This document shows, in pieces, positions 43,624 to 55,518 of a stretch of 64,000 nucleotides of DNA. The notes under the pieces are model-generated. The model had not been told where the DNA came from. It made no database searches and saw only the letters and a list, made by a program, of their open reading frames with translations. This DNA is from Candidatus Poribacteria bacterium (GTDB taxonomy: Bacteria; Poribacteria; WGA-4E; PCPOR2b). A program made the position numbers and the translations under genes. The stretch is taken from contig OZ244587.1 of assembly GCA_965218095.1 (NCBI GenBank), positions 6,240,001 through 6,304,000 on the forward strand, in the 5' to 3' direction. Positions within the stretch are counted from its first letter, which is position 1. Every line of letters begins with the position of its first letter.

Positions 43624-44861
43624 TGTACTGCCATCGGAAATTTAGCCCATTGTCTAAACCAAGATTGTGATACAATGACAGTCAGATTGAAAGGAGAATC
43701 CGATGGCAAAACGAAGAAGATTCACACCCCAATTTAAGGCGGAAGTCGTTATTGAGGCACTTACCAACCAAAGTTCACAAGCGCAACTCTGTCGACAACA
43801 TAACCTCAGCGAAGAACAACTATCAAAGTGGAAACACCAACTCCTTGACAACGCAGCGATTCTCTTTGAATCCACTGATAAGCAATCCAACGACTCTAAA
43901 GAGCGGATTGCTCAACTGGAGCAACTCCTCGGTCGATTGACCCTAGCATTAGACATCCAAAAAAAGCCTCGACTTGGCTGACTTGAATCGGTTTCAAAAG
44001 CGACAGATGGTTGAGGCTTTACAGACCGATTACTCGGTTCGACACATTTGTGAGGTTCTCGGCTTCAATCAGAGCAGTCTCTATTATCAATCTAAAAGCG
44101 ACCCCTTAGAGCTAGTGCTACGAGATGAAATCGAAAAACTATCTGCCCGTTATCCGAAATATGGCTATAGGCGTATCACGCAGTTGCTGTTGCGTATGGG
44201 ATACACGGTCGGTTACCGACGCATCGCCCGATTGATGAAAGCGGATAATCTGTGGGTCGCCGTAAAATGTGGCAGTCAAACCACCCAATCGTTTGACTGT
44301 GTTGGTCAATCGGTCAATCGGGTTGAGAATCTTGACATCTGTCGAAGCAATCAAGTTTGGGTCGGTGATATTACCTATGTCCGACTCAAAGGACAATTCG
44401 TCTATGTTTCGGTGTTAATCGATGTCTTGACCCGAATGATAAGAGGTTGGCAGATGAGTCGGCACTTGACACAACCTCTCACATTAAGACCGTTGCAACA
44501 GGCATTAAGCCAAAGCATTCCAGAAATTCATCATAGCGACCAGGGAGTTGAGTATCTTCCGACAGCCTATATTTCCACGCTTATCGGTCATGGGGTTGAG
44601 ATTTCCTTAGCGCATTGGGGGTGTCCGTGGGAGAACGGCTATGCTGAGAGGCTGATAAGAACCCTCAAGGAGGAAGAGGTCCATCTCAATGACCACGATG
44701 ATATAATGGATGCCAGAGCGCGAATCGGTCATTTTATTGGACAGGTTTATAACCAGAAACGACCTCACTCGGCGTTAGGGTATTTGACGCCAGTTGAATT
44801 TGAGCAAAAACACTTGTCTTAACTTTGATGATTTCTGGTCTAAATTAACGTTGGCACTTCA
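43624..44861 (+). mobile_element. IS3-family element, second type (orfA 43703..43981, orfB to 44822)
   Basis: TG...CA ends TGTACTGCCATCGGAAATTTAG / revcomp TGAAGTGCCAACGTTAATTTAG; AAAAAAAG slippery site; WVGDITY, HHSDQG, ERLIRTLKEE; no clean TSD. Confidence 0.93.
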
Positions 44862-47845: not shown

Positions 47846-48403
47846 TTAAACCCTCTCTACATACGTTCCTGTGCGGGTATCAACCTTGATTGTCGTCCCA
47901 TTTCCGACAAACAGGGGAACCTGGACAACGCCGCCTGTTTCCAATGTCGCTGGCTTTGACCCGCCGCTAGCGGTATCGCCGCGCACACCAGGGTCTGTTT
48001 CGACAATTTTGAGTTCTACAAATGTCGGCAATTCGATCGTCACTGGCGTATTCCCGTCAACTTTGACCTTAATCGTTTCTCCTTCCTTGAGAAACTTTAG
48101 CCCATCGCTAACAAGATCTTCTGATAGTGCGTGTTGCTCAAAAGTCTCGTTGTCCATAAAATGCAATAGATTTCCATCACTATACATGTACTGCATTTCA
48201 CAATCTTCAAGACGAACGGTTTCGATCGTATCTTTTGAGCGGAACGTCCGATCGATCACCGCTCCATCGGTGACCCGCTTGAGCTTGGTGCGAGCGAATG
48301 CGCCGCCTTTGCCGGGCTTGACATGTTGACAATTCACGATGATGTAAATAACGTTATTGAGCCTGATGACTAAACCATTTCGTAAATCATTGAGCGTTGC
48401 CAT
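47846..48403 (-). CDS. efp: Elongation factor P
   Basis: HVKPGKGGAF, PGVRGDT, KPATLETG, VPLF, VDTRTGTY. Confidence 0.98.
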   Translation of the reverse strand: MATLNDLRNGLVIRLNNVIYIIVNCQHVKPGKGGAFARTKLKRVTDGAVIDRTFRSKDTIETVRLEDCEMQYMYSDGNLLHFMDNETFEQHALSEDLVSDGLKFLKEGETIKVKVDGNTPVTIELPTFVELKIVETDPGVRGDTASGGSKPATLETGGVVQVPLFVGNGTTIKVDTRTGTYVERV

Positions 48404-48477
48404 AAAACTCTCCTTAAATCAATTATAATTTAATAACGTGTGCAAGCCAAACAAACGCCTTCGACATCGAACGGATT

Positions 48478-49281
48478 TTACAAATCGATGCCTGTTGCGC
48501 CTATAATGAGCATCGTTTTGGGATTTTGTACATACCCAATAATAGAAGCGTTTTTGATGACGACCGAAGAAGGCACAGATAGTTCGACCTGTCCATTGAC
48601 TGCTTTGCTGAACTCAATCGTTTCAAATGCCCGCACGACGTTTTCATGTTTTAATGTACGCCCGCTATTTTCGCCGCTTCGAATATGCTGTGTAATTTCG
48701 CGCTCAACCAAAGTGACATGCAATACACTTTGCCCTGGAGCCTTGGACACCTTAAATTCAACGACCACTTTACCGGAGTCAAGCTTTGCACGCGGTTTTA
48801 ATATCACATTGACCCCGTCGTGCGAACGGGATTGCTTCAACGCTGAGTTGATTGCCGAAGTTCCTCGTCTTCGATCGGAACCCACAAATGCTTGCGTTCC
48901 ATTGACAATCATTTGTGGCGTGTAAATCCGTCCTGAATGCGTAACTTGAGCGTATCTTCTTTGACGGTTTGAATAACGGCTATCACTAAATGGGTCCTTC
49001 CATCCAAGATAATTCCAGTAATCTACATGAAAAGCCAAGGCAAAAATCTGTTGATTTTCTTTACGGGCGCCCTGCTCGATTTCGCTGAGAAACTTCTCAG
49101 CCGGCGGACAACTGGATCACCCTTCTGATGTAAATAATTCCACGACAGCGAATGGGAGTGGCGCTCGTTGAGCGACAGAATTAGAATCGTTTCTTCCTGA
49201 CAATTGAGCTTGAGCACTGCCCCACAGAATCAAAAGTAAGAGTAGGCAGGCAATTTGCGAGAACAAACCTTGAATCTTCAT
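48478..49281 (-). CDS. Exported DUF1223 thioredoxin-fold protein, probable selenoprotein (UxxC, TGA at 49117-49119)
   Basis: ORFs 49117..49320 and 48478..49038 are in frame: VVELFTSEG-TGA-SSCPPA...FHVDYWNYLGWKDPFS...YTPQ...GENSGRTLKHENVVR; family motif is TSEGCSSCPPA. Confidence 0.8.
49084..49101 (-). promoter_or_regulatory. Candidate bacterial SECIS hairpin
   Basis: GCTGAGA-AGTT-TCTCAGC starting 15 nt after the TGA, with G in loop position 2. Confidence 0.65.
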
Positions 49282-49381
49282 TGTTGCTCCCTCTTTAGTA
49301 TAAATTGCTACTCTGAGCAAGGCATCTCACCAAACACGGTCACAAAGCCCTCCGCTTCGTTCAGAGTGATATTGCTTTATA

Positions 49382-49579
49382 TCATCTTCGTTGAGAACTT
49401 CGCATCCTGCGGCGGTAAACCACCAACCACATCACTATCGTGGCTGGTTCCGGGAACGAGTCCGCCGTGAAGTTGTTAAAGTTGAAGCCGCTACCACTTA
49501 CATAGGAGAGAACAACCTCCTGTCCAATGGCAACTCTATTATCGGTCGAGAAGTCAAAAACGTCATCTCCAAATCTCAT
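49382..49579 (-). pseudogene. Short ORF with a PEP-CTERM-like tail (remnant)
   Basis: Ends FPEPATIVMWLVVYRRR; no signal peptide; hydrophobic segment short. Confidence 0.35.
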
Positions 49580-49803
49580 TTCCTAGCTCCAGTAGGATGT
49601 TTTTTTAATTTGAAGTTGCTGCAATTACGTTAAGTTATCCTCAATTCCCTTTTTTGCTACACTATTATTTTGGCATAAAAGAGCAGTAAAGTCAAGAAGG
49701 TTAATCAATGTTTAACGGAAAAATGGAGAAATGTCTTTGGAAGCAACTCGTCCTCGATTAGATCGAAACAGCACGCAATTTGGACGACAGTCGGCAGATT
49801 GTG

Positions 49804-50856
49804 CTATTCAATCACCCCACCTCCTAAACAGATTCCACCGTCATAAAATACAGCAAATTGACCCGGCGCAATCCCCGAATCTTTAGTCGATATTCTTACA
49901 GCCAGGAGTTTTTCATCGATGGTTTCGATCGCGCAGTCATTCAGATAGGGACCATGACGAATTTTAACATGGAGTTCATGCTTCTCAGGTTTTCCAGAAA
50001 TCCAGTTTACATCGGCAACAGTAAATTGATTTCTGGCACACCAATCGTGGTAATCCTTATGAGAAACATAAACGATGCTATTTCCCGTGTCCTTCTTGAC
50101 CACATACCACGGACCACCGCTTAATCCTAACCCCTGACGCTGACCAATGGTATAGAACCAAAATCCGCGGTGTTGTCCAAGGACAGCCCCGGATTCCAGT
50201 TCGATAATATCTCCTATCTTTTCGCCCAGATGAAATTTGACGAAATCCGGGTGTTTTATTTTTCCCAAAAAACAGATTCCTTGACTGTCTTTACGGTCTT
50301 TATTGGGTAAATCGAACTTTTGAGCCAGCACCCTGACCTCCTTTTTCCACAGATGCCCAATGGGGAAAAGGATTCGGCTTAATTGCGCCTGGCTTAAACC
50401 CAATAAAAAGTAGGTTTGGTCTTTTACCGGATCTGGGGCTCTTTTTAAGACATATTTTCCGTTAGTTTCTTCAACTTGCGCATAATGTCCCGATGCCACT
50501 TTGTCATAACTGTCGTCGATTTTATTCAAGAACTCACCAAATTTTATGCGCTGATTACAGAAAATATCAGGACTTGGTGTACGTCCAGCCTTCAGTTCAT
50601 TCAGGGCATAGGTAACGACCTTTTTATGATATTCTGATTGAAGGGAAACAATTTTTAGGGGTACACCTGCCTGTTCACAAATGGCACGGGCATACTTCAG
50701 ATCTGTCTCCCACGGGCACTCACCCAGAAAGGCGAGCTCATCCTCTAACCATATTTTGAGGTAAAAAGCCGTGACATCGTGACCTTCTTCATTTTTGATT
50801 AAATGAAGCGCAACGGAGCTATCTACCCCGCCCGAAAGTAAAACAGCTATTTTCAT
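49804..50856 (-). CDS. mnmA: tRNA 2-thiouridylase MnmA
   Basis: SGGVDS, TPSPDIFCN, SGHYA, KDQTYFL, KDSQGICF, YTIGQRQG, PGQ. Confidence 0.97.
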   Translation of the reverse strand: MKIAVLLSGGVDSSVALHLIKNEEGHDVTAFYLKIWLEDELAFLGECPWETDLKYARAICEQAGVPLKIVSLQSEYHKKVVTYALNELKAGRTPSPDIFCNQRIKFGEFLNKIDDSYDKVASGHYAQVEETNGKYVLKRAPDPVKDQTYFLLGLSQAQLSRILFPIGHLWKKEVRVLAQKFDLPNKDRKDSQGICFLGKIKHPDFVKFHLGEKIGDIIELESGAVLGQHRGFWFYTIGQRQGLGLSGGPWYVVKKDTGNSIVYVSHKDYHDWCARNQFTVADVNWISGKPEKHELHVKIRHGPYLNDCAIETIDEKLLAVRISTKDSGIAPGQFAVFYDGGICLGGGVIE

Positions 50857-54073: not shown

Positions 54074-54658
54074 CTAACTCGCCGTTTGATGCGCGGCGAG
54101 CCTCATCTGATTAGGAACGCTCTCCTTGATTAGCTTGACGAGCTCTTCGCCGTGTGTTTGCACATTCACACTACGATCAATCGCACGGATATATCCTACC
54201 TTGTCGATGACGAATGTCACACGGCTAGAAGCCTGGATTTCTTCCCTGATACCGCTATAGATTTTGCTGACAGCGAATTCTGTGTCGGCGAGCAGTGGAA
54301 AGCCAAATTGTTCTTGCTCTTGAAACTTCTTATGTGATGCCTCGTCATCAACACTAACGCCCAAAACAACCGTGTCAGTGGCTTGAATCTGGCTCAACTC
54401 ATCCCGGAGTGAACGGAGTTCTGCCGTTCAGCCACGGGTGAAGTCTTTGGGGTAAAATGCTAGGACGACATTCTTCTGGCCGAGGTAATCGCGCAGGCTA
54501 TGTTCGACGTGGTTTCCATCGTTCAGTGTGAAATCTGGCGCCGCCATGCCAACTTTCAGTGATTTGAAGACTCCCATCTGTTTCCCCTTCGCGCTTATGG
54601 CGCTGATAGTCGTAAGTGTAACAGCAATCATGATCAATAACATTGAAACGCGTAACAT
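54074..54658 (-). CDS. Exported peroxiredoxin (AhpC/TSA, BCP-like), probable selenoprotein (TGA at 54428-54430)
   Basis: In-frame halves: APDFTL...VLAFYPKDFTRG-TGA-TAE...VLGVSVD...FPLLAD...RVTFVID; the TGA occupies the peroxidatic Cys of PxxxTxxC. Confidence 0.85.
54392..54414 (-). promoter_or_regulatory. Candidate bacterial SECIS hairpin
   Basis: GTTCACTC-CGGGAT-GAGT(T)GAGC starting 13 nt after the TGA, with a bulged U and G in loop position 2. Confidence 0.55.
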
Positions 54659-54682
54659 TGTGTGTCTCCTCCAATCTACCTG

Positions 54683-55231
54683 TCATCTGTTCCCGCCGGT
54701 TGAATTTTGCCTTCTTCCCCCAGTTTCGTGCCGATCTTCATCGTTTTCGTTTCCAGGAAACCAAATAGCCTGTAACGTTCCGTTGCGGTGACCGTAAATT
54801 GCAGCGGCATATCCCCATAATAGGTCCTTAAAGTCAGTGTTGACGAAGAAGCGGTAAGTAACCATCTCATGCTTATCTACGGCAATCTTAGCGAATTGGG
54901 GATGCCTTCGTTGCAGATTATTTCCGTCGACCACACCGATTAGCAGCACGCCACTTTGATTATTTTTCACTTTCACTGAAACTGTTTCCGCATCTGCTGA
55001 ACCGATATTTTTTATCGAAAATCTGAGATAGAAATCTTCGTTGAGCGGATTTGACCATTCGGTGAACGAGAGCGATCCAAAGCCGTAAAATTCACCAGGA
55101 TCAACGTGGATGTATTTGGAATATTCCGTAAAAGATTGCCATTTGGCTGCGTCAAAGCCATCTGCAAGCACAGTGCTACCGGCCATCATGATTGCAGCAG
55201 CAACCATAATTAAACAAGTTCTTGCATGCAT
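54683..55231 (-). CDS. Hypothetical exported protein
   Basis: Signal peptide ending VLA; ORF co-oriented with and just upstream of the peroxiredoxin. Confidence 0.65.
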   Translation of the reverse strand: MHARTCLIMVAAAIMMAGSTVLADGFDAAKWQSFTEYSKYIHVDPGEFYGFGSLSFTEWSNPLNEDFYLRFSIKNIGSADAETVSVKVKNNQSGVLLIGVVDGNNLQRRHPQFAKIAVDKHEMVTYRFFVNTDFKDLLWGYAAAIYGHRNGTLQAIWFPGNENDEDRHETGGRRQNSTGGNR

Positions 55232-55518
55232 GTTTTCGTTATCCTTTTGTGGCGACGAATGACACACGATATGGAAGATCATTCATCGTTGCCATACCTC
55301 TTTCCCATATAAGCTTTTTGTGGTATTGACTCATCTCCTCCCTGTTGTTCTGCATTTTGCTTCGTTCAACCTCCTGTCTCTGGGCGTTCACCGGCGTCGG
55401 GTATTGTGTCATTTCCAATGTTCTATGACGGCACAACTTGATAGTCAATCTACTTTCTGGAATTATACCAATCTCCACCGCAACCGTCAAGATCAGATTT
55501 ACGCTGGAATACTTCATT

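Follow-up and report, generated by a model that had tools for sequence, protein, structure and literature searches.

The stretch of DNA described here (the window) comprises 64,000 nucleotides of contig OZ244587.1 of a Candidatus Poribacteria bacterium, the genome of which is one contig of 6.35 Mb. On the minus strand of the window, from 49281 to 48478, lies a gene of the DUF1223 family, the 267 codons of which form one frame that ends in a TAA stop and contains exactly one in-frame TGA when TGA is translated as selenocysteine (Sec, U). This TGA is codon 55 (49119..49117, minus strand) and sits within the sequence TSEG-U-SSC-PPA, at the first Cys of the CxxC motif of DUF1223. The gene is very probably intact, with UGA codon 55 decoded as Sec, and the hairpin that follows the codon would act as its selenocysteine insertion sequence (SECIS). 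The features of the gene are as follows.

48478..49281, minus strand: complete gene for a probable DUF1223 selenoprotein, 267 codons plus TAA, one frame with a single TGA, matching PF06764 with 196.6 bits.
49287..49293, minus strand: ribosome-binding site GAGGGAG, 5 nt ahead of the ATG (49281..49279), read from the sequence.
49207..49281, minus strand: predicted signal peptide, residues 1-25, a hydrophobic stretch ending in AQA, judged by eye.
49117..49119, minus strand: UGA codon 55, probably read as Sec, at the alignment position of the first Cys of CxxC, which is invariant in Cys-form homologues.
49108..49119, minus strand: redox motif U-S-S-C (codons 55-58), read from the sequence and placed by an AlphaFold2 (AF2) model in the loop that leads from strand 1 into helix 1.
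49084..49101, minus strand: apical SECIS-like hairpin of 7 Watson-Crick pairs with an AGUU loop, 15 nt past the UGA, from the sequence and its fold.
49065..49122, minus strand: extended predicted stem-loop, the lower helix of which takes in the UGA, from a minimum-free-energy fold (prediction only).
48823..49152, minus strand: thioredoxin-like domain, approximately residues 44-153, from the AF2 model and Foldseek.
48484..48807, minus strand: C-terminal all-beta (sandwich-like) domain, approximately residues 159-266, from the secondary structure of the AF2 model.

When open reading frames (ORFs) are called with translation table 11, the frame is split into two, namely 49320..49117 (67 residues, ending at the TGA) and 49038..48478 (186 residues, from a TTG start). 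An earlier note, made from the letters of the window, had claimed that these two fragments are one frame broken by the TGA alone, that the TGA stands at the first Cys of TSEG[C]SSCPPA and that there is no second lesion. All of this holds: read-through gives 267 residues with one TGA, in alignments codon 55 falls where homologues have the first Cys of their CxxC, and, apart from the TGA, there is no lesion across the 267 codons. The Pfam model of DUF1223 (PF06764) matches the read-through protein with 196.6 bits (cut-off 30.7; E 6.2e-58), and the alignment, of residues 46-252 with model positions 1-202 of 202, runs end to end across the TGA. The signal peptide claimed in the same note fits by eye, in that the N-terminus is hydrophobic and ends in AQA, and has the standing of a prediction. 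In the AF2 model, this region forms a helix (residues 3-28), which is followed by a linker of low confidence (residues 29-36). The G+C content of the gene (0.445-0.465) compares with 0.43-0.50 nearby; a foreign origin of the gene was considered, of which the base composition gives no mark.

The read-through protein matches the sequence of 2AXO (Atu2684/AGR_C_4864 of Agrobacterium) with E 2.2e-26, the CxxC motifs of the two being aligned. An AF2 model of the read-through protein, built from 44 sequences, has a mean predicted local distance difference test score of 90.9 and places residue 55 in the loop joining strand 44-51 to helix 58-74. Such a loop, from the first strand to the first helix, is the classic site of the nucleophilic Cys in thioredoxin folds. 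The thioredoxin-like part of the model is followed by an all-beta C-terminal domain. In a Foldseek search, the top match of the model was again 2AXO (E 3.8e-17; template modelling scores 0.61/0.72; 26% identity over the structural alignment). The second tier of matches comprised HBP35 (5Y1A; E 1.4e-10), Omp28 (2R2C) and the C-terminal domain of DipZ (2HYX), with identities of 11-18%, and the C-terminal beta part matched Omp28, the C-terminal domain of DipZ and Ig-like domains. Matches to NCBIfam models were found only below their cut-offs (Omp28, 27.2 bits against 150; TIGR00411, 19.3 bits against 92.75), and the Omp28 model of Pfam also matches weakly. DUF1223 has been placed in the thioredoxin-like clan, with 2AXO in SCOP class c.47.1.19 (PMC3091736, in the part of the text available). 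The first Cys of the CxxC motif is invariant, being present in 43 of 43 aligned Cys-form homologues, i.e., those with Cys at the position of codon 55. In P0008, a close full-length homologue, C-S-S-S replaces C-S-S-C, which shows that the second Cys is dispensable in some DUF1223 members, the first (the Sec position) being kept. One metagenome copy of DUF1223 (L095, 1501..2019), the match of which begins at residue 86, is without the N-terminal region that holds the thioredoxin motif, and is probably a truncated or rearranged gene.

The machinery for the synthesis and insertion of Sec is encoded in the same genome. The lack of this machinery had been named beforehand, in the earlier note, as grounds for giving up the selenoprotein; selA, selB, selC and selD are all present, each scoring above its curated cut-off. 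SelA scores 605.7 bits (cut-off 267.9) and SelB 353.7 bits (cut-off 242.25). The gene for tRNA-Sec (76.6 bits) lies approximately 90 nt downstream of selB and was also reported by ARAGORN, as tRNA-SeC with the anticodon TCA. SelD scores 371.1 bits and is itself a Sec protein, its single in-frame TGA lying at the canonical site G-U-A-A-K. Furthermore, the genome gives 21 AhpC/TSA matches, of which nine are interrupted by exactly one in-frame TGA and one more by a TGA together with a TAG. The genome thus appears to have a large selenoproteome, heavy in peroxiredoxins (Prx), the members of which ordinary annotation would score as pseudogenes. One AhpC/TSA domain is found within the window (54182..54553, minus strand), in a frame (54074..55369, with TGA read as U) that has one in-frame TGA, in FTRG-U-TAEL (T-x-x-U); the N-terminus of this frame looks exported, and it is a second selenoprotein candidate in the window. 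Prx with TxxU are a known type of selenoprotein. A genetic code with TGA as a sense codon was also considered and rejected: among the 50 ORFs of at least 200 codons in the window, 18 end with TGA, 21 with TAA and 11 with TAG.

A protein search gave at least 8,000 DUF1223 homologues, and, to judge by these matches, the family is large and consists mostly of Cys forms. Among the best 80 metagenome loci, the best of which is 55% identical to the window protein, 77 have TGY (TGC or TGT) at the codon in question (76 were recognised by a regular expression and L037 by eye) and one (L045) has TGA; L043 begins past the codon, at a contig edge, and L095 has no N-terminal part. In a collection of 185,579 species genomes, a strict DNA pattern with TGA inside the motif matched at 14 loci, a number that is a lower bound, as the strict pattern misses variants such as L045. 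All 14 are in metagenome-assembled genomes (MAGs), such that their taxon labels hang on binning: six Pyrinomonadaceae, two Acidobacteria/Acidobacteriota, three Polyangia/Myxococcales, two unclassified bacteria and one Rickettsiales. Each of the 14 has a full-length DUF1223 frame with no other stop, and each has, upstream and outside the pattern, a leader and the conserved strand 1 ([LVI]-V/I-E-L). TGA is thus found at the same codon in 15 other DUF1223 genes (14 genome loci and one metagenome locus), and the TGA/Cys pairs that the earlier note had proposed to seek in related genomes exist and are not unique to one lineage. The gene selA was found in all five of the other Sec-form genomes tested (six of six when the genome of the window is included). 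The nearest proteins in the database, P0003 (74% identity), P0005 (65%) and P0087 (59%), start 14-31 residues past the CxxC motif and seem to have been cut by gene callers at a TGA.

In three of the acidobacterial-type MAGs, the Sec form is followed by a tandem Cys-form paralogue of DUF1223 (L110, 2175..3035; L117, 29..838; L118, 2..838). Two DUF1223 copies are also found at the metagenome loci L098, L102, L104, L106 and L108, the second copy having C-P-T/G-C.

The hairpin downstream of the UGA, GCUGAGA-AGUU-UCUCAGC, is at 49101..49084 of the minus strand, with exactly 15 nt between the UGA and the hairpin, where the earlier note had seen a clean hairpin. A bacterial SECIS directly follows the UGA and has a small apical loop that bears G or GU; most apical loops of the Sec forms (AGUU, GGUC, CGUGC, GGU) fit this expectation. 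The 66-nt region folds with -24.8 kcal/mol, compared with -17.8 +/- 3.2 for its shuffles (z -2.16; 5 of 200 shuffles as low), which, for a single sequence taken alone, is suggestive. The comparative controls are much stronger. A perfect stem of at least 6 bp, with G-U pairs allowed and a start 10-24 nt from the U of the UGA, is present in 15 of 16 Sec forms and in 12 of 74 Cys forms (Fisher p 5e-9, a value that overstates independence, as many Sec forms are mutually related). When the stem must have at least 7 bp with no more than one G-U, it is found in 11 of 16 Sec forms, compared with 2 of 74 Cys forms, and seven different 5' arms occur. The AGUU loop of L045 and its offset from the UGA are identical to those of the window gene, and its stem is different. 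In an alignment of ten acidobacterial-type sequences, 98.4% of the cells pair, whereas sliding the 3' partner leaves no more than 55.6% paired; double changes that compensate each other are seen in two of the seven pairs (G-C to U-A and U-A to C-G). Thus, the predicted downstream hairpin is conserved in position and in structure, not in sequence.

The TGA itself is found in data sets other than the assembly of the window. The stretch, or part of it, is contained in 14 public runs from 5 studies, the 14th having only 0.08 of the sampled words. The contigs of four runs from four studies (X1, X3, X5 and X8) all cover the site, and positions 49117-49119 are invariant in them; the TGA is therefore not unique to this assembly. 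Uniqueness to the assembly, with TGC or TGT in all close homologues, is what the earlier note had said would speak against Sec. X8 is a sponge metatranscriptome, the contig of which covers 49047-49347. This comparison is of assembled contigs (Logan contigs drop rare variants), and X1 is possibly the source sample. The only differences within the gene are T to C at 49051 in all four runs (synonymous, codon 77) and C to T at 49068 in X5 (Ala72Thr). As 49051 reads C in all four runs, the assembly of the window has a minority or erroneous base there.

Three alternatives to an intact Sec-encoding gene have to be weighed. The one that survives best, and is nevertheless very unlikely, is that the gene is a recent pseudogene, in which a nonsense mutation from TGC/TGT to TGA happened to hit the active-site Cys and the hairpin is there by chance. 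The two fragments given by standard annotation are what a pseudogene would give, some hairpin at this place is borne by 12 of 74 Cys forms too, and DUF1223 is patchy in the phylum, being present in 2 of 176 genomes (that of the window and G005, a genome of the same family). G005 also shows that the gene can decay in this lineage: it has a distant Cys form (L025, 39% identity) and a C-terminal remnant of approximately 40 codons (L026, 1504..1623), which is 72.5% identical to the window gene and adjoins aroB and aroQ, genes that lie a few kb from the window gene too. This identity and this neighbourhood suggest that an ancestral DUF1223 copy decayed in G005, the remnant being probably a decayed orthologue. 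The gene in the window, however, has no second lesion in 267 codons, and the full profile match spans the TGA; the same TGA recurs in 15 other genes, labelled as belonging to several phyla, with hairpins of matching offset and compensatory changes; the genome has the Sec machinery and many other TGA-bearing redox genes; and the TGA is fixed in four data sets, where the gene differs only by one synonymous change and one Ala-to-Thr change.

Less likely still is the possibility that the UGA is read through without Sec, by a near-cognate tRNA for Trp or Cys or by local recoding, the hairpin stimulating read-through rather than recruiting SelB. Stem-loops past stop codons can favour read-through generally, and the role of SelB at this hairpin is itself a deduction. 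The site, however, is a redox Cys, where Sec/Cys pairs are the rule, and selA is present in all six Sec-form genomes tested; most apical loops have G or GU where these are expected in a bacterial SECIS; and Trp would destroy a motif that all 43 of the aligned Cys forms preserve. The weakest alternative holds that the true codon is TGC or TGT and that the TGA arose through an error of sequencing or assembly, or belongs to a rare strain. Its probability is negligible: it has in its favour only the general possibility and the mismatch between the window and all four runs at 49051, whereas the contigs of X1, X3, X5 and X8 have no other letter at 49117-49119.

If the UGA is decoded as Sec, the sequence of events might be the following. 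SelB, together with Sec-tRNA(Sec), would recognise the stem-loop that starts 15 nt past the UGA, Sec would be inserted at codon 55, and the resulting two-domain protein, of the SrlA/Atu2684 type, would be exported via its signal peptide. The U-x-x-C pair would then most likely cycle, outside the cytoplasm, between selenol/thiol and selenenylsulfide, and the protein would most likely act as a thiol-disulfide oxidoreductase in the oxidative-stress defence of the envelope; one plausible role is that of electron donor to methionine sulfoxide reductases (Msr) or Prx.

The suggestion of a role in oxidative stress comes from the domains to which DUF1223 is fused and from SrlA, a homologue in Sinorhizobium meliloti. 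Among 50 longer homologues, DUF1223 is fused to DUF3179 in 13, to Redoxin/AhpC-TSA in five and to MsrB or MsrA plus MsrB in three, and one further MsrA-DUF1223 fusion is found among the matches of the protein search. Thioredoxin-like domains fused to MsrA/B, as in PilB of Neisseria, serve as their reductants. The occurrence of the DUF3179-DUF1223 fusion in 13 of 50 suggests that these two domains probably work together. According to the available text of PMC9561847, SrlA, which shares 58% identity with Atu2684/2AXO, carries a signal sequence and is exported, is controlled by CenK-CenR, and is needed for growth on solid medium with high NaCl and for tolerance of H2O2 and cumene hydroperoxide; SrlA with the substitution C61S still complements the salt sensitivity and has lost autorepression. 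These stress phenotypes, together with the crystal structure 2AXO, are where the description of DUF1223 as an uncharacterised family, given in the earlier note, needs correcting. By analogy with SrlA and the fusions, it may be that the window protein is an extracytoplasmic reductant in oxidative-stress defence, a proposal for which belief and doubt are about equally balanced.

The neighbours of the gene in the window are housekeeping genes (ilvD, accB, efp, mnmA, aroQ, aroB, aroK). Among the other Sec forms, the only shared neighbours are uvrA (divergent) and the tandem Cys paralogue, both in the acidobacterial group. An ORF for an IS-type (insertion sequence) transposase (43974..44822, plus strand; rve and HTH_21 domains) adjoins ilvD, approximately 3.7 kb from the DUF1223 gene.

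Several observations weigh against a functional selenoprotein as described here, either at the level of decoding or at that of function. The minimum free energy of the 57 nt after the codon separates Sec forms from Cys forms weakly (medians -17.0 and -14.05 kcal/mol; one-sided p 0.052). One Sec form (L109) is without a perfect stem of at least 6 bp, two others (L119 and L121) carry the hairpin at other offsets, and the Cys forms with a hairpin at this place (12 of 74) have already been mentioned. An Rfam scan of 48300-49900 gave no significant family (best E 5.9 and 9.6), and the SECIS of E. coli fdhF has a bulged U and starts 11 nt past the UGA. Contigs from an RNA library, as in X8, are no proof of transcription, and the cutting of P0003, P0005 and P0087 at a TGA is deduced from where these proteins start. 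With regard to function, no conserved partner gene lies beside the window gene or beside the other Sec forms; the role is ascribed via a homologue that is linked through 2AXO, and via the fusions; and, as SrlA C61S complements the salt sensitivity, the redox motif may be unneeded for some phenotypes.

The history of the Sec position was followed in a quick maximum-likelihood tree (IQ-TREE) of 101 rows, comprising 16 Sec, 82 Cys and 3 truncated proteins, with support from the Shimodaira-Hasegawa-like approximate likelihood ratio test only. The window protein clusters with the three truncated proteins (support 89), and this group is sister to the Cys forms P0004, P0009, L029 and P0007 (starred support 99). 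The Sec forms fall in several clades, and the 101-row tree requires a minimum of 8 Sec/Cys changes; many forks are unresolved, and the starred branches alone force only one change. For this reason, recurrent switching between Sec and Cys is regarded as likely, not proven.

Among bacterial selenoproteins, the commonest type is a thioredoxin-fold protein whose CxxC motif has Sec instead of its first Cys. Thus, the Sec-x-x-C phenomenon itself is not new. The earlier note had left aside whether Sec-DUF1223 was already catalogued, and no such entry was found in the literature or in NCBIfam, within the following scope. The literature gave no joint record of DUF1223 and selenoproteins, the family table of BSepDB, NCBI protein records and subscription-only papers lying outside the search. 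A literature search for PF06764 returned only unrelated pharmacology papers, and one on selenoproteins of sponge symbionts returned nothing relevant. Table 1 of a review from 2026 (PMC13188914) presents itself as a list of the known and predicted prokaryotic selenoprotein families; the DUF families in the text of this review, its supplements lying outside the search, are DUF3179, DUF166, DUF1573, DUF1858, DUF2284, DUF523 and DUF466, and neither DUF1223 nor PF06764 is among them. Nor is DUF1223 among the nine new families of deep-Sep in the part of that source available, its Table S2 lying outside the search. In NCBIfam release 20, no selenoprotein model matches the window protein. The chances that Sec-DUF1223 is truly unrecorded are about even.

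The earlier note had also expected annotation pipelines to call the gene a pseudogene, and they report it as such or as a fragment of 186 residues without the active site; the three closest database proteins look to have been truncated in like manner. If Sec-DUF1223 were recognised, such records could be put right in several phyla, and catalogues and profile sets of selenoproteins would gain a family. Pairs of Sec and Cys point to the catalytic residue, and the reactive centre of DUF1223 would thus be the first Cys of CxxC; this widespread family has only one member with known phenotypes and almost no known function. Together with the fusions to Msr, Prx and DUF3179, this gives a concrete hypothesis, namely that of the extracytoplasmic reductant in oxidative-stress defence. 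The genome is, in addition, flagged as rich in selenoproteins, which bears on the use of selenium by sponge-associated bacteria.

Taken as a whole, these observations could be joined into one picture, to which we would give an equal chance of being right or wrong. DUF1223 would be a selenoprotein family missed by the catalogues, which has switched between Sec and Cys at least eight times in several phyla (mainly in MAGs labelled Acidobacteriota and Myxococcota), a SECIS hairpin being made each time from the same approximately six codons after the CxxC motif. In the sponge-associated bacterium described here, it would be part of an unusually large, mostly exported selenoproteome for defence against peroxides, and would act outside the cytoplasm as the reductant by which Msr, Prx or DUF3179 partners are recharged.

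The system can be compared with several that are known. The stem of the window hairpin differs from that of E. coli fdhF in being without a bulged U and in starting 15 nt, not 11 nt, after the UGA. With the thioredoxin-fold UxxC selenoproteins listed in Table 1 of PMC13188914 (Trx, Grx, DsbA-like, DsbG-like, thiol:disulfide interchange, redoxin and Prx-like proteins), as far as the available text describes them, the window protein has in common Sec for the N-terminal Cys at the start of helix 1, many Cys homologues, a SECIS-like hairpin directly past the UGA and, for some of them, export; the difference is that DUF1223 is another Pfam family, with an extra beta-sandwich domain. DUF3179 (PF11376) is a UxxC/T selenoprotein family in the same text and is fused to DUF1223 in the homologues counted above, whereas the window protein itself has no DUF3179 domain. 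HBP35 of Porphyromonas gingivalis, Omp28 and the C-terminal domain of DipZ come from surface or envelope proteins in which a thioredoxin-like module is joined to a beta-sandwich, and resemble the window protein in this combination of domains; the identities are low, however, and the titles of these entries name none of them as a selenoprotein. The closest likeness is to 2AXO/SrlA, which share with the window protein the full-length match to the family model, a signal peptide (predicted in the window protein), and a thioredoxin-like fold with a C-terminal beta domain; these proteins have Cys-x-x-Cys, whereas the window protein would have Sec-x-x-Cys, specified by a UGA and the hairpin that follows it.

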